In this document: one piece after another, positions 470 to 57,672 of the stretch
How the letters are laid out: each line of letters starts with the position of its first letter
Numbering within the stretch: the stretch's first letter is position 1
Assembly: GCA_036172245.1 (NCBI GenBank)
Contig: JAYWIR010000001.1
Coordinates: 1,054,001-1,118,000, forward strand
From: Raillietiella orientalis
Lineage: Eukaryota
Direction: 5' to 3'
Length of the DNA: 64,000 bases
Notes under the pieces: model-generated
What the model was told of the DNA's origin: nothing
Seen by the model: the letters and a program-made list of their open reading frames with translations, nothing else
Database searches by the model: none
Made by a program: the position numbers and the translations under genes

Positions 470-1270
470 AGGCCTTGATAGATGCCGTGCGGCTACGGGT
501 TCGAATTCGCCCCGGGGGAGAGAAGGGTCGACGCCGAAAATCGGAGGGGGAGCGTCGTAGGTTTCGAGTCCTCTCTGCAGGACGACGCCGGTTGACTTTG
601 GTTGGCTTCAATCGCGGCACCGGCGGAATCTGGATGTCTCCGCTGACGGACCGGAATTGGAAATTGATCTTCCGGGTTCCGTGCAGGAGAATCAAGGGCG
701 CTTTCATGATTCCCCTCCAGTTGTGAGAGTGGAGCGGCACAGCTGGAGATGGGTTGATGCCTCCCCTCGGGAGGTCTCATCTTCAGAGTATTAAGAAGAA
801 GAGCGCTGCTCCCTTTGGGGAGCGGCGCTTCACAGAAATTGGGGAGCGGTTCTCCGAGGTTCCCTTCAGAGGAGGAAACCAAGGAGAGGATCCTTTCCTG
901 GGTCCTCTGGAGAAGAAAAGAGGTGTGACCAGCTTATGGAGACCCCCTACGGAAACAACCAGGGCGAGGGTTCCCTTCCTTTGGGATCGCCTCTCGAGCG
1001 TAGGAGGAACGGACTGCGCTTCCTCTGGAGCCTTCCTGAATTCATAAGGCGGCCCCCCCAGGGTTACCCTCTAACTTGAAGAGACACACACACCCTCGGC
1101 TAGCGGGAGCAGATTTGAAAAAAGCTTTGTGGTTCCTCTTTGTGGCGGACAGTTCTTCAGCACCACTCGAAAACTAAAAAAGAAAGAAAAAGTAAAACCC
1201 TTGAAAAAAAAAGAAAAAAAAGCTGGAAGGGAAACAGCGGAAACGGAAGAACCCCAAAGGAATTCCATCG
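470..1270 (+). repeat. tRNA-headed ~750-nt module, copy 1
   Basis: GGGTTCGAATT at 497, GGTTTCGAGTCC at 560; collinear with the other copies through the A-rich end GCTGGAAGG..GAACCCCAAAGG. Confidence 0.9.
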
Positions 1271-1274
1271 TTCT

Positions 1275-2985
1275 GTGGGGTCCTTTCCTCCTCCTGGAGT
1301 CGGCTCTGTCTGCTGCTGCTGGACGGAAGGCGCTGGAGAAATCGCGAAGGACAGAGTCCAGGGAGTGCACCAGCGGTGGAAAAAAGGCAGGGTTCGCGGG
1401 GGCGGAGGAAGGCGGCACGACCGCGGGAGCTGGCGAAAGCTGCTCTCGCCTTGTGGCGCATGATGTGGGTCACCTGCCGTGCGCTCCGCAGATCGGATGC
1501 ACCCTGGAGCGCGGCGGATATGGTGCAAAGGGCTGCCCGTGCAGATCGAGTGGCTGGTGTTCGGACTCCTCTTCCCGGATAGGACCGACCTGCTGCCTTC
1601 GGGATTACTGGAGCCCGTATGCTAAGGGACCGCCTCTTTGGGAGGGATATCGGGAGGTTCCGCTGTCGGGCATGCTGACCGCTCCCCTCGCCTGGACAAC
1701 GTTGCGCTCCTCCTCGGGTGGTAGCACGAAAAGCGTTGCTGTTCGTCCACTGGGGCTTCCCAGGAGGATAGCGGCGTCACAACTGGGCGAAGGACGGCGT
1801 TCTCCGAACTGCGCCAGTCTCTGGGATGCGACGACCCTCGAGCACGGAAACGCCTCGAGGCCGCGCTGCTTCGATCCGAAGACACCTCGGAAGAGCTGCC
1901 GCTGCTGCGGCGGCGCTGCTTCGCTCCAGGATGCCGGCTTGGGCATCCTGACCATCCATAAGATCAAGCTGCAAGTTCAGTTCCGACTTTTGACCTTTTG
2001 TGTAAAACCATGGACATGTCATTGGTGACGCCACATCTTCCGGCACAGCGCTTCTTTCGCTGCTGCCGCGCAACCATCGTAAGGTGAGTCGATTTGGCTA
2101 CCCCTCGAAGCCTCTGTCCTCACTTCTGGTAGCTCACGGTGGACCTCCTGGCACCCCCCAAACGGGAATTTCTGGCAGCAGGAGGCGCTCGAGTCCTGGG
2201 TCGCCTCTCTGGAGGTGTGTCCAGAGGAACTGCGTCCGCTGCGAAAACTCCTGTGCGAGCCGCTGGGAGAAATCCTGCAGGACTAGATGCAGTGTAGCAG
2301 CCTCGCCCCTCGCCGCAGCACGGTCTGCTCTCAAGGCAAACGATGACAACAGCCATCCGGCGGGGCGGGAGTTGTCCTGCACCACTGCAAGAGTCGAGAG
2401 ACTCCTCGATGGCTGCATGACAAACGAATTGGTGGATGCCGCCATTCGTCGTTCCTGGGCGGAGGGACTCCTTCGGTGAAGCGACCTGCTCGGTGTACCC
2501 CCCGAAGAACACGCGGTCCCTTCCCTGTGTGTGCGGACGCCTCCGTGTTCCCGCTCCTCTGGAAACAAGATGTCCTCTTTCTGCACTGAAGGGATTCCTG
2601 TGCAACCAGAGCAGGCACCCTGGTTTCCGGGGGAGTTGCCTCTCCGAACTCTTCCAGGTGTAGTGCGATGGAGTCGTTCCCGCACCTCCTGTTGGACTGC
2701 GGTTCCCTGGAGGACATGTTGCGCCGACTCACCTCGGCGCTTCATTAGCCGGGAAGGCACCGCTTCGGACTTGCTGCGGCTCTTCTTCACCCAAGGCGGG
2801 CTGAAGACGGGCGCTGTTATAGCAACCATCGTTGCCTCCTCACCATGGTGACAGTTCGCCGCCGTGTGCTGGAGTCTCATTCTCAGCGAAGGGAGACCAC
2901 CAGCATGGCAGCCCCCTTCATGAGGACAGTTGCAAGGTGGTCTCATCTGCAAGAAGAGGTCATCAGTGAGATCGTGGTGTTTGTT
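1275..2985 (+). mobile_element. L1/Tx1-like ORF2 relic (RT domain 4 to C-terminus)
   Basis: QGVHQ (~1360), AHDV as a decayed YADD (~1460), DAGLGIL (~1930), SRCSAMESFPHLLLDC zinc knuckle (~2655-2700); clear DNA homology to 59284-60030. Confidence 0.8.
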
Positions 2986-2989
2986 GATG

Positions 2990-5710
2990 AGTTCCCACTG
3001 GGTCCCCTTGCAATGCGGTTGCGGATTTCTTTCTTGACGCTTGCTGGGATTCTGTCTCCTGGCAATGTATTTTGGGTTCGCCATCAGCGAACTCATGCTG
3101 CTCCATCTCGTGAAGAGCCTTGCCTCCCCACTATCCACAAACTCTTTATATCTCCACTGGCCCATTCAAATCCTCCTTCCGTTTCTCCAGAAAGTAAAGC
3201 TCCGAGATCTTCTCTTGCTGGTTGTTGGATGATTTTCTCGGGCACAGCTTTTCTAAGGGTTTCAAGGCCAAATCTTTTACCATAGTGTCAGAAGATAAGA
3301 CTGTTAAGCAGTTCGAAATGTCCAGGATGAAAAAGTGTCTACTTCATTGGACACTAGCATGAGCTTTCTTTCTATCACCATATAAATAACAGTTGGCTAC
3401 TCTTGACGGCAGATGGAGGAGGTGGTTCTTCACCAGCCACCGAATTCCGTCGGTGTTGTGCTTCCAGTCGGCCTTCGGATGCGTTCCCAGTCTTTGGAGG
3501 CGTACTAAACTTGGGAACAGAAATGTTTTTAAGGAATCTGGCTTTTTCTAGGAGAAAAGTCCAGATATGAAAATGGTTTCGTCTTGAATCCAGAATCTCC
3601 TCCACGGAGGAGACAGTGCTGAAGACCTGAATTTCAAATGGCTTTTTCGAGCATCTGCATGCTTCAGATATTGAGATGCTTGGGACTGATCCGCTGTTGG
3701 CCTTTAACCACGAGGGGTTTTCCAGTAGCAGAAATGAGACAGCAGATTTGGCAGGATAAATGGATAGACCAGAACGAGATGCTAAATTCTCAAAATGACG
3801 CAACCTGACTTCAAGGTCATACGTTTCTTCCAAGATGACCGAGTCATCGGGGTATGTCGGCAGAGCCTCTTCGCCGCAACTCTTCCTTATTACTCATAGG
3901 AGTGGCTGCAAGGCACTCCTGTGGGTAACGAGGAAGATGTGAACTAGTTCTCTGTGAACAACAAATAAATTAACGGGCAGCCCTGTGTAATTCCGTGCTG
4001 GAGAAAGAACGGTCTGGTAACTGAAGGCTCCAGCCATGCGTACGTGGTTCTCTAACCATTTTCAGGAAGGGATTGCCTATTCCAGTTTCTGACAGAGTCC
4101 GTAGGAGTATTTCATGGCAAATAGTGCCAAGCTCATTGGCCAGGTACACAAAACTAATCCAAGATCCTTCGAGATCCTGGCGTCTTGTGTGGTCCAATTT
4201 GTTCTGCAGCACGGAGTTGTGATCGAGTACTCCAGCAAATGGGAGAAAGACTCTTCGTCGAGTGCAAATCGCATTATTCTCAAGGATTTATTCTCTGAGA
4301 CGAGCTGACGGACACCTGACATACAGTCTATACACACTTAAAATCCATATACAGTCCTACCTCAGTACTCGACGGTGTCGGAATTCCTCAAACTCGGTAC
4401 TCGGCGCGTTTTGACGAGGAAAAATGTTTCGACACTCGGCGCATGACTCGGAACTCGACATCTCATTCTCATGATGAAACGAGTGAACGCTTTCATCTCA
4501 TGGTAGCTCACGAACTGTGCCGAACACTTCTATAAAGTGCTCCCCTGGTCATTCCCCTTTTTTGTGCTTTCTGTGCATTCTAAGCGTGAATCATGGGTTC
4601 TAAAATGGCTCAAAATCTTACCACGAATCTTAGAAAGGAACTCGTTCGGTACTCGTCTATCTCGACACATTCGTCACGAATTCCGGAACGAATTACAGAC
4701 GAGTACCGAAGTACCACTGTATTTTATATTTCAATTGGTGCATACTTTCTATACTGAATAAATTGAAACCGATACATTCAAGGAGACTTCAGAACATTGT
4801 GAAAGTAGAATGGTTCTGGTACACCTCCGTGACGATAGAATTCTACGATCTTCCAGAGGGATGTCGAATCTCGGAGTCAGCAAAGTTGCTTCTGTACCTA
4901 CCATCTTCCACCCGAGTAGGTGATTCCATCGAGCCCGGGAGAAGAGTTCGCTTCTCTCCTTAGCCATCCGGAAACCTCATCAACTGATTGGGGGGACATT
5001 CCTAGAGGAGATGATTAAGCCGCTCCCTCTAGAAGAACTTTTCTTCAGGGGTGGTTCATGATCAGTCGATAGAGAGAAGTCCGGCTGTTAGTGAAGGTGC
5101 TTCTCGACCACTTCTGGATCGATGGTCTTGACGAGCGATAATCGATCGAAACGCTCTCCTCCTGTTCAACCTTTACAGCTTCCGGATTTCTGCTTTATTA
5201 TGCGTGTCAGTTCGATGCCTCTCGGCACATCCTTTATAAGGCTTAGTGTTCAACACGTTGGGAATTTCATTTATGAGAGAGCCGCAACCGTTTTCAAAGG
5301 CCTCCCACCGCTTAATTCCCGTTCTTTGCAAATCCTCGAAACGCCATTCATCCTCCATGAATTTTCTGGAATGATCCGGTTGCCTTAACCCACCTCTTTT
5401 ACGTTTCCTCTTCCACTTTCTTGCTGGGAGACTGGTCTCTCCGGCGTGCTCTCATATTAGATTCTGTCTCCACAACAGGTGCGGCCGCAGCAGATTCCTC
5501 CTCATCTAGTATCTTCATTGAAAGGGCTTCGAAAGTTCTGCTCCATTCCAGGAAGTCTCCCTCCCTATTCTCCGAAAGTTGCATCAGAGACTTTTCAACT
5601 TTTCCAGCGGTTCTCCTTCAAACTCTTGAAGGCTGTCGAACTTTGATCGTAGCCAGAAGGCCGAGCAAAGTATGGTACAAAGGCAAATTCCAGCACTGCC
5701 AACTCCGACA
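2990..5710 (-). mobile_element. L1/Tx1-like ORF2 relic (RT), interrupted by a MITE
   Basis: HEILLRTLSETGIG, GITQGCPL (~3990), TYPDDSVIL..SGLSIYPAKS (~3860-3745); many stops and frameshifts. Confidence 0.82.
4352..4719. mobile_element. Tigger/pogo-type MITE, copy A
   Basis: TA|CAGTCCTACCTCAGTACTCG ... CGAGTACCGAAGTACCACTG|TA terminal inverted repeats with TA duplication; second copy at 43710. Confidence 0.88.
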
Positions 5711-6499: not shown

Positions 6500-7012
6500 A
6501 TGGTGATTCAGGTTTTTAGGGCTCCATATCCAGTCTGCTCATCCTTCAGTCACCCAAACTGACATGATCAGAAAGTCCATTTTTTCGGAGCGTCCAGGTG
6601 CAGTCATCTCGAGGAGGTCCTCAGGAAGCTCCGCGCCCAGCGGATGGCGTCACTGCCTCTTCGGCCTCTTCTTCTGACTTTCCAGGCCGACATAATCCCG
6701 CGGGAACAGCAGAGGACCTCGAGGGACGCGGCTGGAAGCACCGCACTCCAAGAGGCATCTGAAAATGTCCCTGGGGCAGTCCACCATCAGGGATCGTAGA
6801 GTGGTCGCGAGGCAATGCCAAAGGGGACGGAGGGGCAAGACAGTCCAACAGCAGGAGCGGGAGGGTCTCCTTCTTCCCGCACCTGTCCCACTAAGCACCC
6901 GCCTCCTCCTGTGTCCAGTGGCGAAGGCGCTCTTCGCACGGGATTCCCCTATGCGCCACCAGCAACGCCAACTCCTACCACTTAGGGGGAGGGAGACCCT
7001 GGCCTAGGATGA
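6500..7012 (-). mobile_element. LINE ORF2 C-terminal relic
   Basis: DRCGKKETLPLLLLDC zinc-knuckle motif at about 6888-6840. Confidence 0.7.
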
Positions 7013-7014
7013 AG

Positions 7015-7415
7015 GAAACCTTTTGGGGTTCTTCTGTTTCCACTGCTTTCCTTCCAGCTTTCTTTCGAAGAATCGTTTTCCTCCTTAGGGGGGGCTCACG
7101 ATGCTCTTGAAGCACCGTCCATGCCACCCGAGGGTGCGTGTCACTCTTCAGCTTAGGGTGGTGCCTACGGGGGAACACCCCGTAGGCACCACCCTATGAA
7201 TCCAGGAAGGCTTCGGAGGGAGGAATTCGTTCCTCTTGCTCCTGGGAGGGAAACCTCCGAAGAGAAACCTCCGCCCTAGTGGTCTCCGAAGGAAACCTCT
7301 TCCTCATGCACTTCGGAAAAGTTGGCCGGATGGAACCCGGAAAGGATCTGCTCCTGGAATTTTTCCTCCCAAGGGAACCAGCAAGAGAACCGCTCCTGGT
7401 TTCCTCCTTTGAAAT
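7015..7415 (-). repeat. tRNA-headed module, copy 2 (3' half only)
   Basis: Reverse complement matches copy 1 about 870-1270, including GCCTTCCTGGATTCAT and AAGCTGGAAGGAAAGCAGTGGAAACAGAAGAACCCCAAAAGG. Confidence 0.88.
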
Positions 7416-7429
7416 GAACTCGTGAAGGA

Positions 7430-8100
7430 CTCTTTCCATATTACTGCACACACGAATTCTCTCTCTTGAAACCTTGCGACTATGACGCACGCGAAAAAGA
7501 CTTCGATTTTCTGTGAACTCTTGTGCACCAGCCTGAGGTGAATGAGAGCAGTGGGATTTTTTTCTGCTGTCCGCAAACGCTTCGCTCGCAGTTTGTTCCT
7601 GCAAGCGGCGAGGTACATCAAAAGATGTTTCGGAAAGGGGCGTTTCCGTGGATGTCCAAGACACGGACTTCTTTCCGGGGGAGAGCAGCCCTCCGTGACA
7701 CGGAGCTGTTCTCGGCAACGCCGTCTTTCGTTCTCCATGCTAAAATCCTTGTGAGAACTCCTTGCGAAAGCTTTGCTGTTGTCGTTCATGCATCCCGCGT
7801 ATCCCATTAATGACGACAGCAAAGGAGAATTCGAATAGCAGGGTAACCGAAGTTTCCAATTCCATAGAAGGCAGCTTGCATGGAAGCCACAAGAAGCTGG
7901 GATGATGATCTTTTCCATCTCATGGGCGAGCGTCATTGTGACATCGGGGAAAACAGATTCGGTACTCTTGGTACTTTTCTCCTTGCCGCTTTCCATCTTG
8001 GCACCGCTGAAATCGCTTTGTCTGTTTTGCTTACGTCAGACTCAGAGAATTTTCATAATGAAATGATGCACTGATGAATCTGAATGGGATTTTTAGTAAT
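7430..8100 (-). mobile_element. PIF/Harbinger transposase relic
   Basis: FPDV..IIIP..WNWK, GYAGCMND, PFPKHLLMY, HLRL..QKIEVFF..VARF follow the motif order of the Harbinger DDE domain. Confidence 0.7.
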
Positions 8101-10602: not shown

Positions 10603-13600
10603 TTATTTCTTTGCATTGACTGCAGCTTGCTGTTTCTCCCTAATCCAATTCTGAATACGTGATTTCAGTTCTGTATCGGGTATCAACATGTCTTCTGTCA
10701 AAGGCATTCGATTGAAAGGGTCCGTACAGGAATTGAGAAGATGGCGCACAATAACTGCCCTATCCATTCGAACTTTAGAGGGTGGAAGAATTACCGGATC
10801 TTCCATGAGGGTATCCATTAGAGGATCTAGAATTGGGCATAGAAATGTAAAAAACCTATCACATTTATGGTCAATCATAGAACCTCGAAACTCTTCTGGA
10901 GCATCACTGAAGTTAACATCTTTCTTTATGTTCTGAAGCATGGTGGCATACGCCTGTCCCGCTAGATCGCGAAACTGCTGAATCTGACTTGGTGTTTTGA
11001 TATTCGCACGATCCATACGACTTGCAGCTTCTTCAAAGAGCTCATGGCTGAATGACCTCTGACCAAAACATATCCGTGACATTACATTTCCCACTTACAG
11101 CATCATTTGCCATTGCAGTTGCCAGCTGATCACTGTACAAATGCAAATAAATATCAGTTAGCTGATTAAGCAAGCGTCTTGGTTCCCAAGAGTATTTTTC
11201 AGGATGTTTCACTTTGAGGTTGCGGCATTTAGGCCCACATAACTGCAGCAGGTTGAAGTTTAACATGGCTGCCAATCTGTCCACAAGCTCAGGACATAGA
11301 AAAGGGCCATGGATCTCCAGGGTAAGATAATGAAACATATCCACCGTCTCTGTAGCTAAGTACAGATACCAACGGCACTGTCGCTCATCTGCTAGCAACT
11401 GCTGCACTTTGCTATTCTGTTGTTCTTCAGTCAACTGGCTCCATTGCGTCCCTTCCATGAGTTCCTGAATTTCATGAATACGCTGCGAAACAGGTTTATT
11501 TCAACAGAAAACGAAGCAAATCACTTACTTTCAAGGACTCCAAGGATTCATCCAGGAGGAATGTCATGTCATTCATCACCATATTAACAAATTTCACAAA
11601 TAGTTTGCTGGAACTAAACCAAAGCACATGAGAGGCGGAAAAAACAACTTACTTTGACTCAACAATGATAGCTGCTCTATGTAGGGGCTGAGCCCACATA
11701 TGCTTGAAAATTCCCTGCAAATGGTTGCGTATGCTAAGCTTGTCAAAGAATTCAGAACTAGCGCCTGTGGATTCTACATCTGTATAAAATTTCATCAAAC
11801 TAGCGGCTAGATGACGCTGAGCCAAAGGATGGCGTAGCAATTGATTAAAGAGTGGAAGGGATAAAGGTTGAACCTCTGGACTTAGCATGAAAACCAATTC
11901 CACTAGCTTGGCAATCAAATAAGGATTGCTAACCAGCTGGGGGGAGCACAAGAAACACAAAAAAAACAAGGTGAGGTGTTCATCTACATTTTCTTGCATT
12001 GCCTTCGGTTGAAAAACAAGAACAAATTGAAACCAATCGGCTAAATCTTGCAATGCCCAATCCGGAAAGGATGAGTACAAGGAGTGAATTTCTGGTGTGA
12101 GAGGCAGTTGGGGTGATCTAGCTACACCAAGGAGCAAGAGCAAGATAGCTGCCAAACTATTGCAGAAAAGATTACAGGACAGCATAAATGCTTCATCTAG
12201 AAGCATGGTTTCAGCACACCACCGTATTTGGGTCATTCTCTGGAAAACCATCAATTCCAAGTAGAGTTTCAACTTTCTACCTCAATATTTTGCTTCCATT
12301 TGTTGATGAGTTCCTGGCTACGGGCTATAGAGTCAGAATCTTGTAGAGTATTTTGATGGCTAACGGCTTCATCAACTAGTCGTTGTGAGTCTCGGAGTGA
12401 CTTGACAGCTTGCTGGAGACGACGACATGCTGGTAGGACACCAACATGAAAGCAGTGCAAAGTGAGGAACCAACACTCAGTGGGAAATTTCACAGGATGC
12501 CACACATGTTGCTCCTTTGTATTCAACATCTGCAGCCATTCAGCAACCTCAGCTGAACTAGCTTTCAAGCATGAGCCAGTTGTTAGAGGAATTCGACAAT
12601 CAGGATGATACAAATAAAAGAGATCAACTTTTTCTGGTGCCACTTTTGAAGCCAGTCTTTGAAGTAAACAAAATAGGTTAATCATAACACCGTCAGGAGC
12701 TACTACTGAATAGTCTACATGAAGTTGGGAACGCTTCTCATTACGCTGCAACACTGTTGCCAAATAGGTCATAGTAGCACCACGAGATGCTGAGTTTAAC
12801 AACAGCAAATGAAATACATTAAACTGATGATGTCGAGCTGTTTGTAAGACTTGTCTGAAAGTCTGCTGTCTAAGCCTGACCTCATTGGCAGTAAGACCAA
12901 GAAAGGCACTTTCTGCAAGCTGCGGATTGTCTTCAGCAAAGCAAGATGCTTGCAGAAAGGAACCAAGAAAAGACAGTGAGACTACTTCCCTTCCCTGGGC
13001 TACTGTCATTGGCTCTTGTAACCAGTTTGGCAGATTTGTTAGCAGCATACAGAAGCACCGTACTCCTTGATATCGAAATGCACACAATTCATTGAGAGTT
13101 TGAAGAGGGGCTTGAGGACTGCTAGCTTGGGGTAAACGCTGCCTAGCTAAAGCAGCACAAGAACTCAACAGGGGAGTGAACACCTCATCAAAGCATCCTG
13201 ACTGGCAACACAAATTAACTAATTCCTAAGGAAAGCAAAGTGGAAAACAAAGAATATCTTTCTTACATGGAACAGATCCATTGGTAATTTATGGTTGATC
13301 AGCAAAGGTAATAATAACGGACTGCAACACTGATGTTGTGAACTAAAGCACCCTTGCAGGATCAGGAGAAGATGGCCAATGGCTTGTTGCCTGATAGTAT
13401 CCATTACTTCCATATAACTACGCAAACTACACATCTGAAATACTCCATTGGTAAGCTATTTTATTAAGGAGAAACAAGAGTCACCTTAGAGCGACGACTT
13501 TCTTCTTCACACACCTGCTGATAACACTGTATCACGAAGCCTATCATCAGCATTTCAGGAAAATCATGCCACTTTGTCTGGCCTGTCAAAGATAGCAATT

Positions 13601-14719
13601 CTGTGCAAGCATCTGAGCACTGTAGATCGGCAGATGAATCAGCATTTGGAGAATGCCAAAAGCCTACACTTATTGGGTAACAAAAATAAACAATAATTTC
13701 ATTTGTACATGCAAATCCTGGGTTTCTCATCAATATTTCATGGATTCCTGTTGGGTCCCAAGAACATTTACAGATTATCTCCATTAGACTCATGGATACT
13801 AAATTCTTGATGGAAACAGGCTTTTTTTCACCACTCAGAGGAGTTAAACAAATAAGAGATGCATCTCCTTCATCTACCCATTTCACTTTCAAAATTCTAT
13901 TCACAATTCTTCGAAATTGTTCTTCTGTAGTTTTGCCCTAAAAGATTCAAGCCATCTTCCAATTAACCTTTTGACTACAATCACCTTGAATCGTTTTGGA
14001 GTAGTTTCATCAACTTCCATGGTATCGATGCCTGAATCAACATCCAACTGAATATTCATTTTCATTTCAGGTATTTCATTTTCTTGCCAGGTATTGTCAA
14101 AATTGGATTCCACAGCTAGTAAAATACAGATTACTGTGCTTATCAATTAAAAATTCATTATTCAATTTCAGATAAAAAGTCAAATAAATATTAACAATAT
14201 CTAGTATTGGAAGTATAAGACGTCGAAGGCACATCAGTCTGGTTGGAATTGGTATTTTCTTGATTTGTGCTAGCAAGGTCCATAGAATTATCACATTTTT
14301 CTCCCCTCTCAGTTGACAATTCTTTATCAGCTGGATCGGAAACATTATTCAATGCAGATAAGTAAGCTAAACGCCTTTGTCTAATCTGCAAATCAAAAAT
14401 GCATGCTTTGGAATTTCGTAATATGTACATAGAATTGCAAATTACTCTTTTTCTAAAATACCATTTAATGAACAATCCTTTTCACTACCCATTAACTTAA
14501 TTCTGCTATTATCCTAATGATTCACTATCATAATCATTAAGGCAATGATAGTAAATCTGAAATCAAAATTACGAACACTGATCGGGCAGTCTGGCTATGG
14601 GAATTTACAACATAATAAATTGTAAACATCAAGTAGTCCAATTTAATAAATTCGCTTTGACTAATACACAACTACTTCTTACGAAAACTCACATCTTCAG
14701 GATTGGGATCCGAGTTCAT
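10603..14719 (-). CDS. UBE4B: Ubiquitin conjugation factor E4 B (Ufd2 core plus C-terminal U-box), intact multi-exon gene
   Basis: Exons read from GT-AG sites: 14719-14693, 14385-14196, 14115-13985, 13937-13485, 13434-13267, 13225-12281, 12239-11653, 11613-11529, 11482-11099, 11058-10884, 10826-10603 (3369 nt, 1122 aa; exon 4 may contain an extra in-frame 45-nt intron and the exon 2 donor is weak). N-terminus [18 protein letters not shown] resembles UBE4B; Ufd2 motifs [47 protein letters not shown]-box [18 protein letters not shown]...DPFNRMPLT. Confidence 0.97.
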
Positions 14720-18391: not shown

Positions 18392-18499
18392 ACACCTTGC
18401 AATGGCCGTCTCCCGATCAACTTGCCCGGAAAAAACAAAAACCAGCCTTTTAGCAAGAGAAAGATTTTATTCACACCTTCCCCTGGGACACCTCCCCCT

Positions 18500-37726: not shown

Positions 37727-37869
37727 TTGTCGTCGTGTTGCTACACCACTATTACCTCGTGAAAGGAATAGGATTAGGCCGTGTTGCCAGGTGTGTCACT
37801 GTGTAGCTTGAGTGGTTACTGTGCTCCCAGCCTCCCTCATCTGCACACTTTTGGCTGTAGTCCCTGATC

Positions 37870-39250: not shown

Positions 39251-39264
39251 CACCCTCCCGCGAT

Positions 39265-39960: not shown

Positions 39961-39964
39961 CGCG

Positions 39965-41509: not shown

Positions 41510-42250
41510 GGCGTCCTCACTGTGGCTGCGGCCTCCGCCGGCATGGCACCGGGCGTTGCAGGTTCGAATCCCTCCCGGGAAAAGGTCGACGCCGAAAAAT
41601 GAAGGGGTTGCATCGCGGGTTTCGAGTCCCCTCCACCTTGCAAGATGGCGCTGGTTGACCTCGGTTGGCTTTGGGAGCCGCTGACTGGCCAGAATTGGGA
41701 GCTGACCCTCTGGGGTCCTTCTGGGAATCAAGGAGACCTTTGGGGTTCCCCTCCGGTTGTGAGAACGGAGCTGGTTGATGCTTCCCTCCGGGGCTCGCCT
41801 CTCTGGAGTGTCAGGAGCGTGCTGCTTCCTTCTGGGTTCTCTTTAGAGGCGGAAACAGGAAGCGGTACCCTTGCGGATTCCTTCCGGAGGAAAAATTCCA
41901 GGAGAGGATCCTTTCCGGGTTTCCTTCGGAAAAGAAACGAGGAGTGGCCCCCTCCAGGGAGTTATATCGGTCCTTCCAGGGAGAAGGAGGAGGTTTCCTT
42001 CGGAGACGACCAGGACAGAGGGTTTCCTTCGAGGTTATCCCTTCCAAGCGTCAGAGGAACGGACTGCCCTTCCTCCGGAGCCTTCTTGGATTTCATGAGG
42101 CGGTCCCTACAGAATGGCTCCCCCTAACATGAGGAGTGGCACGCATCTTCGGGTGGCGTGGACGGTGCTGAAGAGCTTCGCGAGCGCCCCCTGAGGAGGC
42201 GAACGGCTCTTCAGCATTTCCTGGGAACCAAAAAAAAAGGATGAAAGGAG
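41510..42250 (+). repeat. tRNA-headed module, copy 7
   Basis: GGTTCGAATCCC at 41561-41572, GGGTTTCGAGTCCC about 41617; collinear body, A-rich end. Confidence 0.9.
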
Positions 42251-42254
42251 AGAG

Positions 42255-43670: not shown

Positions 43671-43709
43671 TCTCTGAGACGACCTTGAAATTCTCGTCCT
43701 CGACATTTA

Positions 43710-44060
43710 CAGTGATGTCTCAGTACTCGTCCAACTCACTACTCGCCGCATTTTGATGAGAAAAAAAATGCTTCGACTCTCGGCTCATGCTCGGAACTCT
43801 CGACACTCTCATGATGGAACAAGCAAACTCTAATGCAGTCTACGTCTCGTGGTAGCTCGCGATCAGTGCCTAACAGTTCCATAGAGGGCCTCCCGGATCG
43901 TTCCTCTTCTTTTGTGCTCTCTGTTCATTTTAAGCGTTAATCATGGGTTCTATAATGGTTAGAAATGATACCACGCAGCCTAGAAAAGGACTCGTTCGTC
44001 GGTTTCAGCAGTCGTCATGGGTTCTGGAAAGAATTACCGACGAATACCGAGGCACCACTC
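43710..44060. mobile_element. Tigger/pogo-type MITE, copy B
   Basis: TA|CAGTGATGTCTCAGTACTCG ... CGAATACCGAGGCACCACTC; interior collinear with 4352-4719. Confidence 0.85.
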
Positions 44061-44064
44061 TTTT

Positions 44065-45560
44065 TCTGCTCCCAACGCTTGCTCGCATGTCTACTGCTGG
44101 GGAATAGGGCCTTCCCGAGAAGCACAAGAAGTGCAGCAGCCAGTCTTGCAGAAATGCTTAAGAGGAAAAGACGAGCAGGGAGCGAAGACCGGTTCGCAGC
44201 TGACCGCCTCCATTCACCTTGGAAGCAAGGAAAGAAAGGACAACCAAAAAGAAACGTGGAAACTTCTCCTTTCCGGGAACGAGAATGAAAAGAGATATCG
44301 AAGACTTTGCTTCTGAAATTCTCTAAAGCTCGAAGACCCTACCCCAGACGCGTGCCGAGAGAATCGCGCCGGAGCAACTTTCCTTTCCGGAAGGGTACAC
44401 AAAGACGAAAAACACTCTCAACATGTTCTCTTACTTCTCCGCTTCCAGGAGACCACGGATTCCTCATCTTCGCTTCCTTCGAAACAGCAGCCCCTTCTTC
44501 GGAAGTGGCTTCCCACCACCATACCACGAGTCCCCCTCCACGGACAGATGGCTTCCAGTTCCGCAGGAAGAGGTTTTTGATGTTTTTGGTGTACTCGCAA
44601 AGGCGATAACGGAATTCGCAAAAAGATGTACCCAGTGTTCAGTAAACTCCAAAGAAAAGGGCACCTTCGGTGGAAAATCGTCGAGTGTATCCTTAGCAAC
44701 TGATGTGCCCGGCAACGTCGCTGTGGGCACTAGCACATGCAATCCTTTTGTTTTTGTCTTTCCGCGCTTTTCTACTAGGCAAGGATCTGTCTGTCTGGTA
44801 GTGCGATGAACAGGAATGGAAGTCCACGAAATTGGTGAGCGAGTTGAGGGGGAAGTCTGCTAACGAGTGCTCTATCCCTGCTTTCTAGTTGCTGCAAAAC
44901 TCACTTATTGATCTGCTTGCTGGATCTTCCGCAGGATGCTGGTCATAATCCAAACCGGCACCCTGCCGCGGTTTTGCTTCGCCTGCCCATTTCCCTTCTG
45001 AAAAGACCCATCAAAATCTCCTTAACATTGGTCCGCGCACCCCTTCGAAGGTTGGTCCCTTCCGATGAGGGTGCTTTTGACAAAGTAGGCCAAAATGAAC
45101 CTCAAGGTGGGGGGTTGTACGCGGGGGCAACTGCTCGTCCTTGGAAGAGTCCTCGAAGGATCTCGATTCCGAACCGATGTCCACGGTTCGGTACTTTAAG
45201 TACGTCGGTGTGCCGCTGGGGGAATTTTTTCCACGGAGGAGGCGTGGTCCAACCGTCTCTGGAAGGCAGAGTCGGTTCTCGGTTCGTTCCAGGAAGGCAA
45301 GTTCTTCTTACCGCAAGACTGGCCATGGTCTGTGGCCCCCATCCTCCGACCCCTGTTTCTTGTCTGCTCCCCCTGCCCAGCAGTGGCAAGAAGCGGACCG
45401 AGGGTCTCCTGCGGAAAGCCCTTGAGGCCACCTGGAGGTCTCGGGTCCATTCGAAGGACGTGCGCGCTACGTGGTCATAGGAACGGGGTCTTGACCTCCT
45501 GAGACTCTGGAGAGGATGGAGCGCCAGCTCAACTTGAGAAGGCTGGCCCTATATTGGACC
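44065..45560 (+). mobile_element. LINE RT relic
   Basis: SPPPRTDGF (domain 0), FKYVGVPLG (domain 7, ~45195), RGLDL. Confidence 0.7.
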
Positions 45561-47989: not shown

Positions 47990-49480
47990 CCACATCATTT
48001 GCAAACTGTGATCAGGGTACCTCAGTGCTGAGGATGCCAAAATCTTTCCCTGTGATACGGAAAAGTTGAGCAGCCGCTCCTAACACAAACAGAGTAAGTG
48101 AAGAAAGAAGATGGCAGATTGACACCTCAAGTGTTGGAAGACCTTCAACAGCAAACAAGAGTTCACGGAAGTTGAGAAGGATTCCTCCCTTCCCCGTCAC
48201 GAAGCATTCGGGGCTGTTCGGTCAACGTCACTCGTTTTCGCATCCTCTGCGGCATGCGGCGAGAGTGAGCTCTCACTCAGTGGACCGCGCAGATAACCTC
48301 TACGGTTCAACTCTTTCGTTTCTCCTCACCCTCTTTCCGAAATGTTCGTCCTGTTCGACCGCGATGAGATCTCGTCTTGTCCCTCGTCCGTTCTTCACTT
48401 GTCGCCAGCAGAGTCCCGGCGAACGTGCGTGAGTGCTCTTTCTCGGGGGTGAATGCTCCTCGAGCATGCAGATCCCGAATTTTCCACTATTGGCATGGGG
48501 AGGAACTTCTGATGGTGCGAACAAGAAGCAAGAAGTTCGAGGAGGACAGCAGCAACGGATGCAGCCAGAAACCCCGAGTTTACCATCGGTCACGCTCACT
48601 GCAGGAGTTCCAAAAGCTACTGAGAAAGATACGAGAAGGAAAGTGAGATTGAAGCGCAGTTTGGGGTGCCGGTGGATCCTGGGATCCCTGGAGCCAAATC
48701 TCCCTAGTGCTTCCTGTCTTGAACAAGGTCGGGTCAGTCGGAGGCAGCTCTAGGAAACGCAGACCGCATTCGAATTCGCCCCCACCACCTTCTTAGACCG
48801 GAATGTCGGGAGGTTCCGAGTCAGGGCTTGAGTTCCATCTCCTCGGACCTGTTCCAGGAGGCACCCGACCCGTGTACGTCCTCCGCAGCTTCCGGCGTTC
48901 CGAGCCGGGGGTCGTGCTTTCCCTTTCATTCCTAGGACGCCTTTCCCGATTTGCACGAGACTCATCCTCCGAGATGCCGTCGAGGTTGCTTTTGCTCTGA
49001 TTGTCTCCATGCATCTCGAGAGATACTCCCCGGGCTGCATCCCGAGCGGAAGAGCGAAACTCGTAGGACCTTCGCAAACACCCTGCGCAGAGGGACGGTG
49101 CGGAAAAATCCTGTGAGTGGGAAGAAGTGGAAAGCAATTTACAAGAGAGCGTCTGGGACCCGTGAGCGGAATGAGCAAAGCACAAAACCAGAGGAGGCTG
49201 GAAACGCAGCAGAAATGGGCTGTTCGGGCTCCATGCAGACAAGTGAGGTGTGGATGCACCTCGCCGGCATTTCCATGCCAGAACCCACCATCTCAGAAGA
49301 ACTTCAAGGAATGCAATGAAGAAAATATATTTCCTAAATGTGTACTCTATAGTACACTCTCCAACATTTCGTGGCGTGATGTACGACCATTTCCATCTAG
49401 GTCACTCGTGCTAATCGCTAAGTGGAACTTTTGTTCCGAGTTCCCACGAGAGACTGCCGAAGAAGCACGCAATAATTCTT
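47990..49480 (-). mobile_element. LINE RT relic carrying the left inverted arm
   Basis: HPRKS-like and GKGGIL motifs; shares the inverted tract with 50228-50560. Confidence 0.5.
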
Positions 49481-50560
49481 GAAAATCAGCCAACTCAGTG
49501 GTGCCAGCATCATTTGCGCCAAAGACACGGAATGCATGCTCACCAAACTTGGATGCATCTCTCTATAAGGGAAGAAGTCCCCATGCATTTTTCAAGTGAC
49601 CAGTTTCAAGGAACCCTCATGCCATTCCTGCGACTCAGCTTCTGTAAACTTGTTTGCTATCGAAAATCTCTTGAGGTTTGAGGCTTCATCTCGTCACCCT
49701 CTTCCCCTCGTCTTTTGCTATCCTTTCCTTTGTTTGTGTCAAGAGCGGCTGCTCAACTTTTTGGTATTACAGAGAAAGATATTGTCATTCTCAACATTGA
49801 GGTACCCTGACCACAGCATGATGTCCACACACGATGGAGAGACCACATTTCGTTTAGGGCACCGCAGTCTATCAAGCCTGGAACACTTTGGGGCCGCAGC
49901 TTCCCGGGGACGAGGTGCCCACGCTCACCCACAGTCGGAGTTGCAATGGGAACTCTGTGACCACCTGCAGATGCAGGGAAATGCTTCGCGTGCATTCTGT
50001 TGCCAAGCAAAACAGATGGGTGACTCACGGAAAAAAGCAAGGGCAACTTTCTCAGGAAGTTGTCCCTTCTGGAGTCATTGAAAAGACATACAGATGCCCG
50101 CTGTCGAGGAAGAACTCGCCGAGAAGACGAGAAAAGGATGAAAGCACCTCGCCCTATATATAATCGTCTATGCAGATGGATAGAAGGTCGGGACTGTGTA
50201 CGGTGTCTCGGTAAGAATACGACCTTTCCAACAGTGGAAAATTCGGGATCTGCATGCTCGAGGAGCATTTGCACCCGAGAAAGAGCACTCACGCACGTTC
50301 GCCGGGACTCTGCTGGCGACAAGTGAAGAACGGACGAGGGACAAGACGAGATCTCATCGCGGTCGAACAGGACGAACATTTCGGAAAGAGGGTGAGGAGA
50401 AACGAAAGAGTTGAACCGTAGAGGTTATCTGCGCGGTCCACTGAGTGAGAGCTCACTCTCGCCGCATGCCGCAGAGGATGCGAAAACGAGTGACGTTGAC
50501 CGAACTCCAGGGTCACTCGGGAACAGCCTTGAATGCTCCGTGACGGGAAGGGAGGAATCC
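48179..50560. repeat. Inverted repeat pair with a perfect 232-bp core
   Basis: 48216-48447 is the exact reverse complement of 50274-50505 (checked block by block); imperfect extension to 48179-48493 / 50228-50560. Confidence 0.97.
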
Positions 50561-51190
50561 TGGAATGATGCGACCTCCGTCCCTCGAAGGCTGCTGAAGG
50601 AACCTTGCGGAAAGAACGGATGCTGCCGGATGAGGAGATCTTCCTCTCTGTAAAAACATATGCATCGTCGTGCCTCTCTCCACACCCGGCTTCCGTAGTC
50701 CATTTGTGGTGAAGACCCTCCACTCCTTACTTCTGCTCTTACGGTTACTCAGATGGCGCTCTACATCTCGTGGGTCTTGACTGAAACGCGTTCTCCCTAG
50801 CGACAATGGAACTCTTCCAGCTTCTTGTAGTCTTTTGAGCGAGATTTTCCAAAAGTGGTCACTTTGCGGCCATCCGGAGTGGACTACGTCTCAGAGCCTG
50901 TTTCAGCCAGGCAGACACACCCCTCAGGGTCCACGCCTCCTTGTCGGTGCGGAGACAAAACCGCGTAAGTCGGTCCTTGTCGATGGCCTCCAGTGCTCGA
51001 GGAAATTTCCGTGGACGAAGTCTCATCTTTTGTGCGTGCGCATGTGTGTCTTGGTTCCTCAGGAAGACTCTTCCCTTGAGTCGCGAGCAAAGGATTCTCA
51101 GCGAAGTTCAAGTCGCGTGAAAGCAGACGAACAACCGACGGAGCTGCGGTGGAAACGCTGGGAGCCGGCGATGAGGCAGTAGTGAAAGAC
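49500..51190 (+). mobile_element. LINE ORF2 relic carrying the right inverted arm
   Basis: KILSFSTLR, GSCPF, VYADG (~50168), HPRKS, AET..VLVD in order. Confidence 0.65.
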
Positions 51191-51649
51191 TGCTGCTGGC
51201 GATTCCCTTCTTTCGTGGATTTGTTCCTTGCTAGTGCAAACAGTTGGGCGTGCACTCATCCAGTGTTCTTCGGCTCGGTGTTTCTTTCCGTCTAGCTGCT
51301 TCTTGGGCGCGTGCTCCTACAAGAACAAATCGAGTTCTAGGGTGTTAGGAGAATCGCTTGGAGGAGGAATCAGAGTCGTGTAATTGGGTCGGAAAAAGGA
51401 GAGATTTCTCCTTGGAAACGAAGACCGCTCCAGACGAATGGAAGCTGCAAGCTCCAAGAGATACCGAGGAGATCCATCCCTTCGAGTAGAGTAAAATGCC
51501 ATAAAAAAGCCGCTGCGTGCAGCGTGTCGTAGCAACAGGAAGAAAATGTAACGCTGCAATCTGACGTACGTGTGACCTGACACGCGCAGTGCCACATCCC
51601 CCACTAAACTTGACCATAGGAAGGAGTGAGGGGGTTCTCTGGACTGACT

Positions 51650-52740
51650 GGGCTCGGATTCAAAAACCCCGAAAGATCATAAGAGATAAATACGTTGTGC
51701 TCATTCGAAACAGATTAATATAGCAATTCATTTTAATATGCATAGTTATTCATATTTGTTTACTTACAAATTATTAGCAGTAATATTATTCGAAAGTATA
51801 TATTTATTATAATTCAGTGACATACCTGTTACCAATAAAATTAATAAGTTCTTGATTGAATTGCTGATATATACACTAAAGATTATGAAAATTAAATATA
51901 TGCTTATTGTATATACTTATATATATTAAATGAATGTATAGATATCGAGTTAATAATTAACAGTTAATAATTGTGACGAAAATAGTGGGCTAAAATAAAA
52001 ATGCAAGCAAATCGAATAAGCAAAAAAGAAAATTTGATATTCATGTATTCGTCAAATACATATGCCTTATATATATAAACATATCTGTATAAATATAAAT
52101 ATATGCATGTACATATATATGTATGTATATGTGTACATGAATGTATTTACATTTCTATATATATTTACACATATATATGATCACTTGCACGCATATATTT
52201 AAATTATATATAAATATTGATGTATATAATTGGCATATATGTATTTTTTTAGAATCTTTAATATATATATAATCAACAACATATTGATTTTTATTAATAA
52301 AATTCATGCCACTGAATGTTAGTAAATATATGTTTCAATCATATAATTGTTAATAATATGTGTGTTAATAAATATGATTAACTATGCATATCTATGTAGA
52401 AGAATTTGTATTTCTTTTTTATATAATCTGAATACATATATCAGCAATATAATTAACAGCTTACTAATTTGATAAATGAAATGTATACTCCTGAAGCTCA
52501 ATAGATATATAATCTTTAATACATTATACCAACAGTATAATCAACAGCTTATTTTATTAACAAACTGTATGTCACTGAATCTCAATAATTATACCTGTTC
52601 TAATACTATTACTGTTAATTATGTATACGTGTTCATAATATGAATAACGATGTATGTTAAAGTAAATTCGTGCATTAATCTGGTGGAGAATGAGCACACA
52701 TGTTTCTCTCTCATGATCTTTCGGTGTTTTGATCGTTCGG
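51650..52740. mobile_element. AT-rich foldback MITE (Mutator-like termini)
   Basis: TCAAAAACCCCGAAAGATCATAAGAG..TGTGCTCATTC mirrored by GAATGAGCACA..CTCTCATGATCTTTCGGTGTTTTGA; long decayed inverted arms. Confidence 0.8.
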
Positions 52741-54240
52741 GACTTCATCTGTTCGAAACACTTAAAAAGAACACATTTGCATTTTGCCCCCCAGAATTCA
52801 TTACTCCTCTAATCAGGGATTCTCGAAATCCAGTAGGGCAAAGAGAGAGGGGAAAGGTTGAAAAGCCTCCTATGCAGGACGTGACTTGCTCTGCATCTCG
52901 TTGCTCTCCTCCCCGTTTTTTCTTCCTGGAGAGAGCGCGCCACGGACGTGAGGAGTCTCCTCTCTTGACGCTACGTAGCAACAGCCTCCCGCAAATCGTC
53001 ATTTCCGAAACAGCAATGAGTAACTAGGCGCGTTAAGCAAAAGCATCGATTCGTGTACACAAACCGAGTGAACACATTTATCACCACCCAGTGCACGTGT
53101 ACATATGTACTCGTTCTGGCAGGTAAAACAGCAGCAGCAGCTTTCGGAGCGCTCCTAGAATCAGGGAAGATGGTGGCAGCTTGGAAGATGCTCGAAATCA
53201 CCTGGCAGCGCGCAAAGGCACGTAGGAAGAGCCCTCGGAGATTAAAATTAGCACCAGGAACTATTGGAGCTCCCAGCTCCCCTCTTATCCCCATCCTACG
53301 CAGATGTGCGAAGCTCTGCTGAAACTGTCCACACCGTACGAGCCTCACTGGGAATGCAGGAGGAGTTTGCCCGCATTTTCCCGTGGACGATGTTTGCAAT
53401 GACGTCAAAGGACGATCCCCCTCTGAGACGAGAAGACCTCAAACTGTCCGAGGTCCAGGGAAGTGTCCTCTGATTCGGAGTCGGACTCCACACCATCCTG
53501 GGAATACCAAAATAACCACTGAAGTGAATTTCGGAGTTTCGTGGCATTTTGATCGTTGGCGTCGGCGCGATACCATTTTAAGTGCTTCTCACCCCTTTGT
53601 CGTTGCGGCCCTATTATGAATTCACCCTTGAGCTGGAGCTGAAACTTGATGACGGGTCAGAAGAACTCAGTTTGAACCCTAAGGGGTGCTCTTGCGCTCT
53701 CATCGACTGCTCCCATGTTTTTCTAGAGAATTTGAGGCGTATCTTGATCTGAGTCATTTCTTGATCTCAAGGGCCACTGCTAAAGATGGTTTACGCCTCG
53801 AGCAAATTTTTCCAATAGGAAAACTGCTGCCTAGACGATGTGGTGATATTCAGGCGTCCGTGTCGATTGCTGTTTCCGTCTTCTTTCTCAATCGGTGGTC
53901 TCGAGGAGATCTAATGATTGCTGCCAGGTTCGCCGCCATAAACGAGGCAAGAGTTCAACAAGACTCCGAACGTCCTCCTCTAGCGTTTTTTTTTTTTTTT
54001 TTTCTGTTTTTTTTTTGGGGGGGGGGGGAAGGGGGGAGGGGGAAGGACTTCTCTGCGTTGCCTCTTGCGTAGGGAAAGCTCTGTTTAGTGCAAACCCATT
54101 TTTTGTCTTCCCAACGTTCTGCGATTCAAATTTACTCGAATAATGGGAGGAGCTGCAAACGGATTGAAAAGAATCATTAACTAGATCGGTGCGTCACTGA
54201 CACCGTAGCTGAAATTCAGAGCTCTTCTTGCTATTTAAGC

Positions 54241-54616: not shown

Positions 54617-56589
54617 TACTTAGCCGAATCAGTCCGAGTGTTTCTCATGGACCACTGAGGTCTGTCTACGGACTGAGTAATGTTCTCCCTAATAAATAAT
54701 GTTCTTCTTCCTAATAAATAAACATCATCGTGTCAGCGTGCAGTTAGATTCGTGGATATTCCGTCGAGTTGGTTTTGTTTCGTTGAAGATATTGCATTAC
54801 GGCGTTCTCGATGTTTTTTCATCTCGATGTTTGTTCATTCCCAGGAATTTAGGTGTGAGCTTCCCGGATAACAGTGGCACCTTTCATCCCTGCACTTAAT
54901 TTGCTTTTCTTCATTCTGACTTAAAAGTTTCCTTATTTTCGAATCGTATGAGTGTTATTTGTATTCAAAGAGAGCGTGCTCGTTTGGATTTCCGAATGCT
55001 TCTGCCACTCAGAGTGAAACACATGAGCGTATTTTCTCCGAGATGAAGGTGCAAACAGATGGAGGGATTATCCAGGAAGCAATGATGATTACGTTTTCCT
55101 CGCTCATCATATGAAATCAGGGGCATCGGAGGCAGGCAGAAAACTCCACGCGCTCCCAATCTTTTATTCTTTCCTTGTTTGACTGCCAAGCACGCTAAGT
55201 CACCAGGAGAAAAAAAATGTTTGCTGTCTCTTTTGAAGCGCACAATTCGTTGTTTCGTTCCTCGTTAGTGGTTTCCTTTCGAAATATCCAAGAAAGAGGA
55301 AGGTGGCAATCAAAAACATGAACTCCAAATGAAGTTGGTACTCCTGAGGAGCCGCATTTGCTATCAGTGCTATCTATGGGCGCGAAAGACAAGTTTGAGA
55401 AAATGTCGCTTCCTCGCCTGAATGCAGACATCTTCCCTGCATTGGTATGCTTCGAAACTGTGAAGCTGTGGATGATCTGTGAAATCACGTAGCCCCTTCC
55501 TGCCCCGCCAAAAGGCGCACGCGCGCGCGCATCCTATGTAGCTGTATATACATACAGAAATACGTTCCTTTGTATTATCAAATAACAAAACTGATCGAAA
55601 TAACAAAGGTAGTTGCAAACTGATGGAACGTCTCTCGCGCTTTTGTTCTTTTTTTTGGTTTTCCTTCCTCTTCATCGTAATGTAAATCTGAATCCGAATC
55701 ACAATCTAAAAAGAGCAGAGAAGACTTCCATTTCCAACACAAAGACGATTTTTTTTTTTTGTCTTTGTCGGTCTTCAAAAACGCACTACATCAACATTCA
55801 AGGATCGTGCAGTCTTTCCCACCCGGACTGCGTACGCCATGACAAGAGGCAACATTTCGTAGGTCTCAGGTTAGGAAGATTGATTTCCTGTCTTCTTCTT
55901 TGCTTTCTTTTGCCTCCGCGAATAGGGTGCTCTCGTGCAGAGTACGATGATGGCACGATACGAAAACGCCTTGGAGTAGGGAGATTAAAGGGAGAGTAGG
56001 TGCACGATCTGCAAACTCGTCTTAAGCAGGTCGATTATTCGAAACCTGATCGGAAGAACTGACCGTGGTCAAAGTGTTCGGACCGGAAATCTCGGGATTC
56101 TTGAAGATCGGCTTGGCATCCACGTTCTATTGTTCCCGGCAGAGGAGCAATGTATCTTTCAGCAAAAGAAGAAAAAAGAAAAACTCCTATTTTTGATTGC
56201 TACCTTAGGGAAGATCTGGAGCTAGAACCCTTCCGGCGGGGGCGAAATTCTCATATCATCGTTCGATGGAGAGGGTGCGCTCTCCTTGGTTCATTTTCAT
56301 TCTCCGAAGACAGAGCTAGCCTAGACTTTCCTTCGTGTTCTTAAGCTCCTTCCCTCTGCGTTGCTAGTAAACCGGACCGTTGTCCTCTCGCTGTTCTGTT
56401 TCCTTCGAGCCGACGGAAGAATAACCTTACTATATTTTTAGCATGTTTACTCTGAGCATCATTTCACGTGACTCTCCAAATCATGATCTGGGTGTTTGTT
56501 GTTGTCCAGTCTTCAGCTCCTCCAAACATGTTAATCGACGGAATAGCTGAAGGCCTCGCAACTGATTAGAGTTGACCGCACTCGACCAC

Positions 56590-57672
56590 CATTTTCACAA
56601 CCAGGGGAGAGTCTCGAAGGGCTCCTTGGTCTCCTGAAAGGACCCCGGAGGACCAACTTCCAATCCCAGCCAGTCAGCAGGGGCAATTTGGTCTCCAGCT
56701 TCCACCAGTGCCACACCTGGGACTTTGCGCTGGGGCGTGCTACTGGGTATTTCGGAGGAAGACCTGCAGTGGCCCCCGGTGCTCAGCAACACCCGCACCC
56801 TCCTCTTGATGTGTCAGGAGTCGGCGTTGATGCTGCTGCACTGGGAGCTCCCGTGCAATGCTGCCGGAATCATTGGACACAAGGATGTGTGGACCCAAAC
56901 TGCACAAGGCGAGGGTAGCGGGAATCCCTCTCGCACCTGCTTCTATACTGTGTTGCCCTCCAACCCTTTTGGGGACACTTCGCGACCTTTGGAACCCCTG
57001 ACGGCAACACCAGAAACGTTTTAAAGTGCCTCTTCCTGCGTAACGCCCTCATGCCGGCCGCATCCCTTGCAGCACTTTGCTGCCCACGCGGCGGGACCGT
57101 TGCTGCATGGAGCAACGCCAGAGGAGGTCACAACGACACAGGGACGCCATCAATTTTTCTGTCCTCTTCATGAGGATAGCGTCAAGATGCCGGCATCTGC
57201 AGATCTGGGAACCATAAAACAAGAACTTGCCGGCATCCTTACAAGGATGCAGAGGACGCCCCCGAGCACACAGTGATCCCTTTGCCAACTCCTCCTCCCC
57301 CATTTTTTGACTGCATTTTTTTGTTTTGTTTGTTTTTCTTTTTGTTTTTCACCCCTCCTGCTGTGCTGCCGAGGCAAACCCTTCTGGCCTGCGTGCCAGA
57401 TCCCGCAGGTTCCTTCTCGTAGTTATAAGTTACGTGGCAGGATCAATCGTCTGTGTCAGGATCTGTGATCCTGACACAGACGTGTGTGTTTACTTTATAA
57501 ATAAACTCTCCGGCATGACCGGGTGTCAACCAGTGCCACACCAGCGTCAACCTGCAGGAGGAGCTCAAAACCCACGGCGCGCACCTCCCACTCTCGGCGT
57601 CTATCCTTCCCCAGCAGCGTTTGGTGCCACACGCCTTCGTTGGCGGTGTACCACCACACTACCGCTGCCATT
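56590..57672 (-). repeat. tRNA-headed module, copy 8 (5' part), split by a LINE insertion
   Basis: Head with A-box-like TAGTGTGGTGG at about 57660; body resumes below 56717 after the 14-bp duplication ACCAGTGCCACACC. Confidence 0.85.
56718..57528 (+). mobile_element. 5'-truncated LINE with perfect 14-bp TSD
   Basis: TSD ACCAGTGCCACACC at 56704-56717 and 57529-57542; LRWGVLLGISEE..LLHW..PNCTR..ESLSHLLLYC; related to 2460-2700 and 59520-59740. Confidence 0.92.

Follow-up and report, generated by a model that had tools for sequence, protein, structure and literature searches.

Does the non-coding module that recurs along a 64-kb stretch of the Raillietiella orientalis genome (contig JAYWIR010000001.1; hereafter the window, meaning the whole stretch analysed) spread by attaching itself to the 5′ ends of long interspersed nuclear element (LINE) cDNAs, or did the module and the LINEs around it insert separately? 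A sequence-only reading had proposed the former, a hitch-hiking system in which a tRNA-headed RNA is repeatedly joined to differently truncated LINEs. The window does not support such a system as the main mode of spread, since five of the eight module copies have no detectable LINE and one carries an antisense insertion. The module is nevertheless a real repeat family with discrete ends. Our best explanation, which we hold at slightly better than even, is that it is an old, non-coding, non-autonomous retroposon resembling a short interspersed nuclear element (SINE), around which LINEs later inserted in the ordinary manner, with no more than one or two template-switch chimeras arising.

That the module is present eight times was borne out by a profile search, by a core motif and by boundaries common to the copies. 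An nhmmer profile recovered all eight loci named earlier (470 on the plus strand, 7415 on the minus strand, 29895 on the plus strand and so on) on the same strands and with an offset of at most 55 nt. The profile was trained on copies 1, 2, 3, 6 and 7, whose recovery is by construction; copies 4, 5 and 8 lie outside the training set, the last being found as two fragments with E-values of 1.4e-14 (57619-57522) and 3e-22 (56732-56585). The module is approximately 800 nt long, and self-BLAST of the window gave 63–72% identity among its copies. By nhmmer, six of the eight reach the 5′ boundary. A 25-nt core motif, allowing at most three mismatches, occurs six times in the window and in none of 100 shuffles; metagenome scans with this motif and with a gapped head pattern returned no matches (0 each).

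Both ends of the module were defined by alignments that took in 1.5 kb upstream and 4 kb downstream of the copies. Homology sets in approximately 40–50 nt ahead of a GGTTCGAA motif and ends with a conserved hairpin, CTGAAGAGC...GCTCTTCAG, followed by an A-run and then by a purine-rich stretch that is common to copies 1, 2 and 4 as far as ...CCCCAAAGGATT. The six alignable copies share these 5′ and 3′ boundaries and have otherwise unrelated flanks, and the flank alignments revealed no sequence upstream or downstream of the module that is common to any pair of copies. In each of the six copies with a preserved hairpin an A-run comes next, and the 60 nt after it are purine-rich, ranking in the top 2.5% of the window's 60-mers in three of the six and in the top 12% in five. 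Copy 1 has an expanded A-rich tract at 1160-1235. Tandem Repeats Finder detected no tandem repeats inside the modules.

Pairwise identities between the aligned modules range from 55 to 71% in a star-like pattern, with neighbouring copies no closer to each other than to distant ones, which puts the divergence of a copy from the ancestral sequence at roughly 20%. In 21 pairwise comparisons, gap events were mostly not multiples of three (between copies 1 and 3, for example, 14 of the 22), with one frameshifting indel per ~30–110 nt between copies, and open reading frames (ORFs) of the module matched no Pfam family. We consider the module non-coding on account of these indels and the lack of a Pfam match. 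At the RNA level, no ribozyme or other Rfam family was matched, and the RNAalifold covariation term was unfavourable, at +2.96 kcal/mol.

The description of the module as tRNA-headed holds up weakly. An exact B box, GGTTCGAATCC, occurs in three of six heads, and relaxed ARAGORN settings gave a tRNA-like call in one of the six (copy 3 only, at 29898-29968), whereas default ARAGORN and Rfam gave none; default ARAGORN likewise made no call on the head consensus. An A-box-like TGGCTGAG lies ~38 nt upstream of the B box in some copies. The sense strand has no conserved T4 run, and three of seven copies have no T4 at all, which is compatible with transcription by RNA polymerase III (Pol III), yet no evidence for it. 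We infer possible Pol III drive of the module from the B-box-like motif only.

Searching at the DNA level by nhmmer, with the spacers between modules as queries, revealed a LINE family, LINE-Y, represented by four fragments (Table 1). The motif C-x-R-C-G-x-x-E-(S/T)-x-P-H-L-L-L-D-C occurs in all four, always in the same relative frame, and forms a CX2CX7HX4C knuckle typical of the C-terminus of LINE ORF2. In Y4 the knuckle lies within a 165-aa open frame (59539-60033). Among the 30 nearest neighbours of this frame in a protein atlas, four belonged to a zf-RVT cluster (score 0.94), which we treat as a lead only; a PDB search with the same frame returned nothing relevant, and Pfam zf-RVT did not match it at E ≤ 0.05 despite the clear CCHC knuckle. 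The LINE clade of Y seems to be poorly covered by current profiles. The family shows no reverse transcriptase (RT) domain because all its copies are short 3′ fragments. Its 3′ end has a hairpin and lacks poly(A). A perfect 14-bp duplication (14/14) flanks Y3 and a duplication matching at 14 of 15 nt flanks Y4, and neither of these two observed target sites is A-rich. From the CCHC knuckle, the 5′ truncation and the duplications around Y3 and Y4, we conclude that Y is a LINE whose insertions are of the ordinary kind, truncated at the 5′ end and flanked by target-site duplications of 14–15 bp.

Table 1. Module copies and LINE-Y fragments in the window, with the evidence for each.
Feature	Coordinates	Strand	Description	Evidence
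Module copy 1	435-1295	+	full length; common tail stops near 1277	nhmmer E 1.9e-210 (in training set); tail alignment
Module copy 2	6975-7461	-	5′-truncated, profile positions 312-808; tail stops near 7003	nhmmer
Module copy 3	29862-30676	+	full length	nhmmer
Module copy 4	32298-33041	+	full length, most diverged	nhmmer E 9.6e-71 (outside training set)
Module copy 5	36489-37105	+	profile positions 54-612; without 3′ hairpin and tail	nhmmer E 1.4e-79 (outside training set)
Module copy 6	39238-40026	+	full length	nhmmer
Module copy 7	41482-42327	+	full length	nhmmer
Module copy 8	56585-57619	-	profile positions 87-293 only; split by LINE-Y3 into 57619-57522 and 56732-56585	nhmmer
LINE-Y1	2251-3084 (2251-2975 in the spacer search)	+	ORF2 C-terminal relic; knuckle ~2650-2720	nhmmer E 2.6e-109 to Y4; phmmer; motif
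LINE-Y2	6570-6993	-	5′-truncated relic; knuckle reads RCGKKETLPLLLLDC	nhmmer E 1.2e-25 to Y3
LINE-Y3	56718-57528	+	5′-truncated; within copy 8 in antisense	duplication ACCAGTGCCACACC at 56704 and 57529
LINE-Y4	59284-60228	+	5′-truncated; without module	duplication AGCTTGTAA(A)CACCT at 59270 and 60229

According to the sequence-only reading, every module copy is directly followed, in the same sense, by a remnant of ORF2. This is true of one of the eight, copy 2. There the module tail runs out near 7003; Y2 starts in the same sense at 6993, within ~10 nt of it, and the knuckle follows ~130 nt downstream, so that the partner does open just before the zinc knuckle, as had been read. The copy 2–Y2 junction has the architecture of a LINE-mediated chimera. 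Copy 1 is also followed by a LINE fragment in the same sense, but Y1 begins 974 nt past the module tail, and a junction there is compatible with the data but unproven. The 974 nt between them matched nothing in Pfam or among solved structures, and a phmmer search of PDB with three frames of 1270-2290 returned no reverse transcriptase. Homology between Y4 and Y1 starts only where Y4 itself is truncated, so Y1 could extend further 5′, which is likewise unproven. A suspected likeness of the sequence just downstream of copy 1 to Y2 or Y3 was not significant, the best pair being equalled in 3 of 100 shuffles.

Copy 8 contradicts the proposed arrangement. Rather than following the module in the same sense, Y3 lies inside it in antisense, between the two arms of its own 14-bp duplication, which is the module sequence GGTGTGGCACTGGT; Y3 thus entered copy 8 independently, as a nested insertion. 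No module precedes Y4, and Y3 likewise carries none, leaving two of the four Y fragments module-less. A single duplication enclosing module and LINE together, as expected of a joint insertion, was found neither at copy 2 plus Y2 nor at copy 1 plus Y1, where matches stayed at chance level and the 3′ ends of Y1 and Y2 were not located.

For copies 3–7, the LINE partners read from the sequence were not detected. Pfam searches of 112 sense ORFs of at least 50 aa, lying up to 2.5 kb downstream of the eight copies, returned nine single-member families (best E 0.01), none of them LINE-related, and 455 further ORFs of at least 62 aa from the whole window gave only UBE4B domains, a histone (E 1.1e-5) and zf-RVT (E 0.043). 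Neither RVT_1 nor Exo_endo_phos was matched at E ≤ 0.05–0.1 among the 567 ORFs scanned. With stops read as X, the 24 sense frames of the 2.5-kb downstream regions yielded no Pfam family at E ≤ 0.1, including the 15 frames that follow copies 3–7. Regular expressions for RT motifs showed no enrichment in the window. By nhmmer, the spacers after copies 3–7 have no homology to Y or to each other, except for two repeat families described below, unlike the equally old modules, which align at E ≤ 1e-70.

The negative domain results for copies 3–7 are limited, because ORFs of the same age would be broken approximately every 100 nt, and Pfam is too insensitive here, as its failure on the open 165-aa Y4 frame attests: domain scans alone under-call old or unusual LINEs, and in this case missed a real LINE fragment. 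Truncated LINEs of one family keep a common 3′ end, and five coeval partners would therefore need to come from five different families. In addition, the spacers after copies 3 and 6 are 1.5–1.7 kb long, too short for LINEs that start at the endonuclease–RT linker or in early RT. The sequence-only reading had also described the region as saturated with LINE relics; this was not shown, the sole LINE-type Pfam match being the zf-RVT hit above. That hit is a zinc-knuckle ORF of another type at 27949-28197 on the plus strand, CKACGDVDTKLHVLTCP, located 1.7 kb upstream of copy 3 and not adjacent to it. Another LINE family probably left this ORF as the C-terminal part of its protein; a representative-protein search with 27949-28200 returned three weak matches to repetitive, non-LINE proteins.

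The two other repeat families among the spacers are unclassified. Family X occurs at 4348-4726 and 43703-44072, both on the plus strand, with ~74% identity and an internal palindrome; its copies lie downstream of module copies 1 and 7, respectively, at differing distances. Family W occurs at 37521-37804, 51584-51868 and 52528-52742 in both orientations, with 68–74% identity, and adjoins AT-rich simple sequence at ~51.9–52.6 kb.

How could the module have spread? In the SINE-like explanation that we favour, the module begins with a discrete 5′ end and a degenerate tRNA-type promoter region (the B box GGTTCGAATCC with a weak stretch resembling an A box); a structured body follows, and then come the conserved 3′ hairpin and an A/G-rich tail that varies between copies. 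LINE reverse transcriptase would have dispersed the copies singly into unrelated sites, and such dispersal would make homology stop exactly at the module ends. That copy 2 lacks its 5′ part yet keeps its 3′ end speaks for this reading. LINE-Y was active in the same region, inserting once into a module (copy 8) and once without one (Y4). The copy 2–Y2 junction, and possibly copy 1–Y1, may then represent a rare template-switch chimera formed during LINE-Y reverse transcription, or a nested insertion; junctions of this type would not be the family's way of spreading.

Several observations weigh against the SINE-like explanation. Loss of the module 3′ end, as in copies 5 and 8, is not an outcome of retroposition alone, and a SINE of ~800 nt would be long. 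Default ARAGORN reports no tRNA in the window, and the Rfam tRNA model gives no match at the gathering score, none at E ≤ 10 in copies 3 and 7 and none at E ≤ 1 in copies 1, 4, 5 and 6. No target-site duplication surrounds any module, where only chance-level 8–10-mers were seen; a 14-bp duplication at ~20% divergence would usually be lost. We saw no likeness between the module 3′ hairpin and the 3′ end of LINE-Y, and no LINE partner is thereby identified. Copies 3–7 lie within 12.5 kb in one orientation, an arrangement with a two-sided probability of 0.06 by our calculation. The copy 2–Y2 junction is tighter than chance: with six module 3′ ends and five LINE fragments on the two strands of 64 kb, and 15 nt allowed between them, we roughly estimate the chance of such an adjacency at ~0.004.

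That junction speaks for the account given in the sequence-only reading, in which a cellular or Pol III RNA spreads mainly by joining the 5′ end of variably truncated LINE cDNAs, by ligation or template switching, in the manner of MINE or U6-L1. Copy 2 and Y2 stand in the same sense, their junction is within ~10 nt of the common module 3′ end, and Y2 is truncated before the zinc knuckle; copy 1 and Y1, also in the same sense, would imply a different truncation point. The identical 3′ end of copies 1, 2 and 4 is as expected of a discrete RNA 3′ terminus. Since the Y3 and Y4 target sites are not A-rich, insertion targeted to the module tail becomes a weaker explanation of the copy 2 junction, and the negatives for copies 3–7 are weak insofar as coeval ORFs are too broken for Pfam. 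Against this account, however, stand the 15 read-through frames without a Pfam family, spacers without homology to Y or to each other, and the shortness of the spacers after copies 3 and 6 relative to the claimed LINE start points. At copy 8 the LINE is nested in antisense, and a template switch would begin with the module 3′ end, which is missing from copies 5 and 8. Searches for an enclosing duplication found none, and Y3 and Y4 are module-less. We therefore regard appending to LINE cDNAs as an unlikely principal mode of spread. A more restricted version seems to us similarly doubtful: the module would be a transcribed ~0.8-kb RNA with a tRNA-like promoter, onto which LINE-Y reverse transcriptase occasionally switches, and the resulting chimeras of MINE or U6-L1 type (copy 2–Y2, copy 1–Y1) would equip truncated LINEs with a ready-made promoter, as a non-mammalian metazoan counterpart of Magnaporthe WEIRD-MGL.

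Length raises the question of whether the module belongs to another class of repeat, either as one piece of some larger non-autonomous element (a terminal region of long terminal repeat (LTR) or Penelope type, for example) or as a composite like SVA. Eight hundred nucleotides are long for a SINE, there is no tRNA call and no duplication, two copies lack their 3′ ends, and several unclassified repeat families (X, W) lie nearby. Against this, no sequence beyond the module is common to any pair of copies, no terminal inverted repeats or LTR-like duplications were seen around the copies, and no integrase, RT or GIY-YIG domain occurs in the 567 ORFs scanned; we find this origin improbable. Copies 3–7, clustered in one orientation at a spacing of 2.2–4.2 kb, could instead descend from a regulatory module or non-coding RNA gene that was duplicated in tandem here long ago, selection having kept the modules while the spacers decayed, and modules do align where spacers do not. 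Neighbouring copies, though, are not more alike than distant ones, the RNAalifold covariation is unfavourable, indels are frequent, and copies 1, 2 and 8 lie far off and on both strands, one copy being 5′-truncated. This makes local duplication very unlikely. Slightly less probable still, in our judgement, is that the module is the 5′ untranslated region of some LINE (Y or another) in which internal deletions repeatedly brought it next to downstream LINE parts. One LINE family does follow both copy 1 and copy 2 in the same sense, at different positions, but the window holds eight modules against four Y 3′ ends, only two of which lie downstream in the same sense, the opposite of what is expected. 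The module 3′ boundary is also the same in copies 1, 2 and 4, while deletion breakpoints should vary, and neither ORF1 nor RT was detected after any copy in the Pfam ORF and read-through scans.

Set beside known systems, the module resembles the general class of tRNA-derived SINEs in being non-coding, in its discrete 5′ end with a B-box match and A- or purine-rich 3′ region, in having one 5′-truncated copy that keeps its 3′ end, and in occurring in both orientations with unrelated flanks. It differs in its unusual length of ~800 nt, in the absence of a tRNA call by default ARAGORN and Rfam, in having no recoverable duplications, and in a 3′ end that is not shared with Y, the only LINE here with a defined 3′ end. 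Nested insertion of LINEs and SINEs into older repeats is ordinary genome decay, and Y3, with its perfect 14-bp duplication on either side and copy 8 split around it, is an instance; by itself, however, nested insertion does not account for the start of Y2 within ~10 nt of a module 3′ end.

The other comparison is with LINE-mediated chimeras, the WEIRD-MGL 'MINE' elements of Magnaporthe and mammalian U6-L1. As listed in PMC2104539, these have a full-length cellular RNA as their 5′ part and a 5′-truncated LINE as their 3′ part, with varying truncation sites, direct same-sense joining and flanking direct repeats. Like them, copy 2–Y2 couples the copy of a non-coding RNA, in the same sense, with the 3′ part of a 5′-truncated LINE, and the 14–15-bp duplications of LINE-Y recall the 14-bp repeats reported there for known chimeras (PMC2104539). 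Unlike in those chimeras, the arrangement is clear in one of eight copies only and most modules have no detectable LINE; the 5′ part of copy 2 is itself truncated (from profile position 312), and a search for enclosing direct repeats found none. A truncated LINE 3′ part at varying sites was not found across the family, being present at copy 2, possible at copy 1 and undetected, in scans of limited power, at copies 3–7.

As it stands, the result is routine repeat annotation, one unclassified SINE-like family and one LINE family. If module–LINE chimeras were to recur genome-wide, they would show that LINE reverse transcriptase switches templates in a non-mammalian animal as well and suggest a possible route by which truncated LINEs acquire a promoter, a finding of modest importance.

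The window contains no N, and its G+C content is very uneven, at 31–61% per 2 kb. A UBE4B/Ufd2-like gene occupies an AT-richer island at ~10606-13937 on the minus strand, with five large, nearly contiguous open exons and few short gaps or frame changes. Its domains are intact, four ORFs matching Ufd2P_core (best E 1.5e-48) and one the U-box (E 8e-26), and its best relatives are arthropod UBE4B proteins. Because identity to these is only 37% in the core and 58% in the U-box, the host is probably an animal lineage without close relatives in the protein database searched. An ORF at 18088-18450 on the plus strand resembles histone H2B (Pfam Histone, E 1.1e-5) but has decayed, its C-terminal half being scrambled; it is probably a processed pseudogene and as such would point to past LINE activity. 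Lastly, an inverted repeat of ~320 nt with 92% identity (48178-48493 and 50228-50561), much younger than the other repeats, has its arms 1.7 kb apart and may belong to a foldback element or mark the termini of a DNA transposon.

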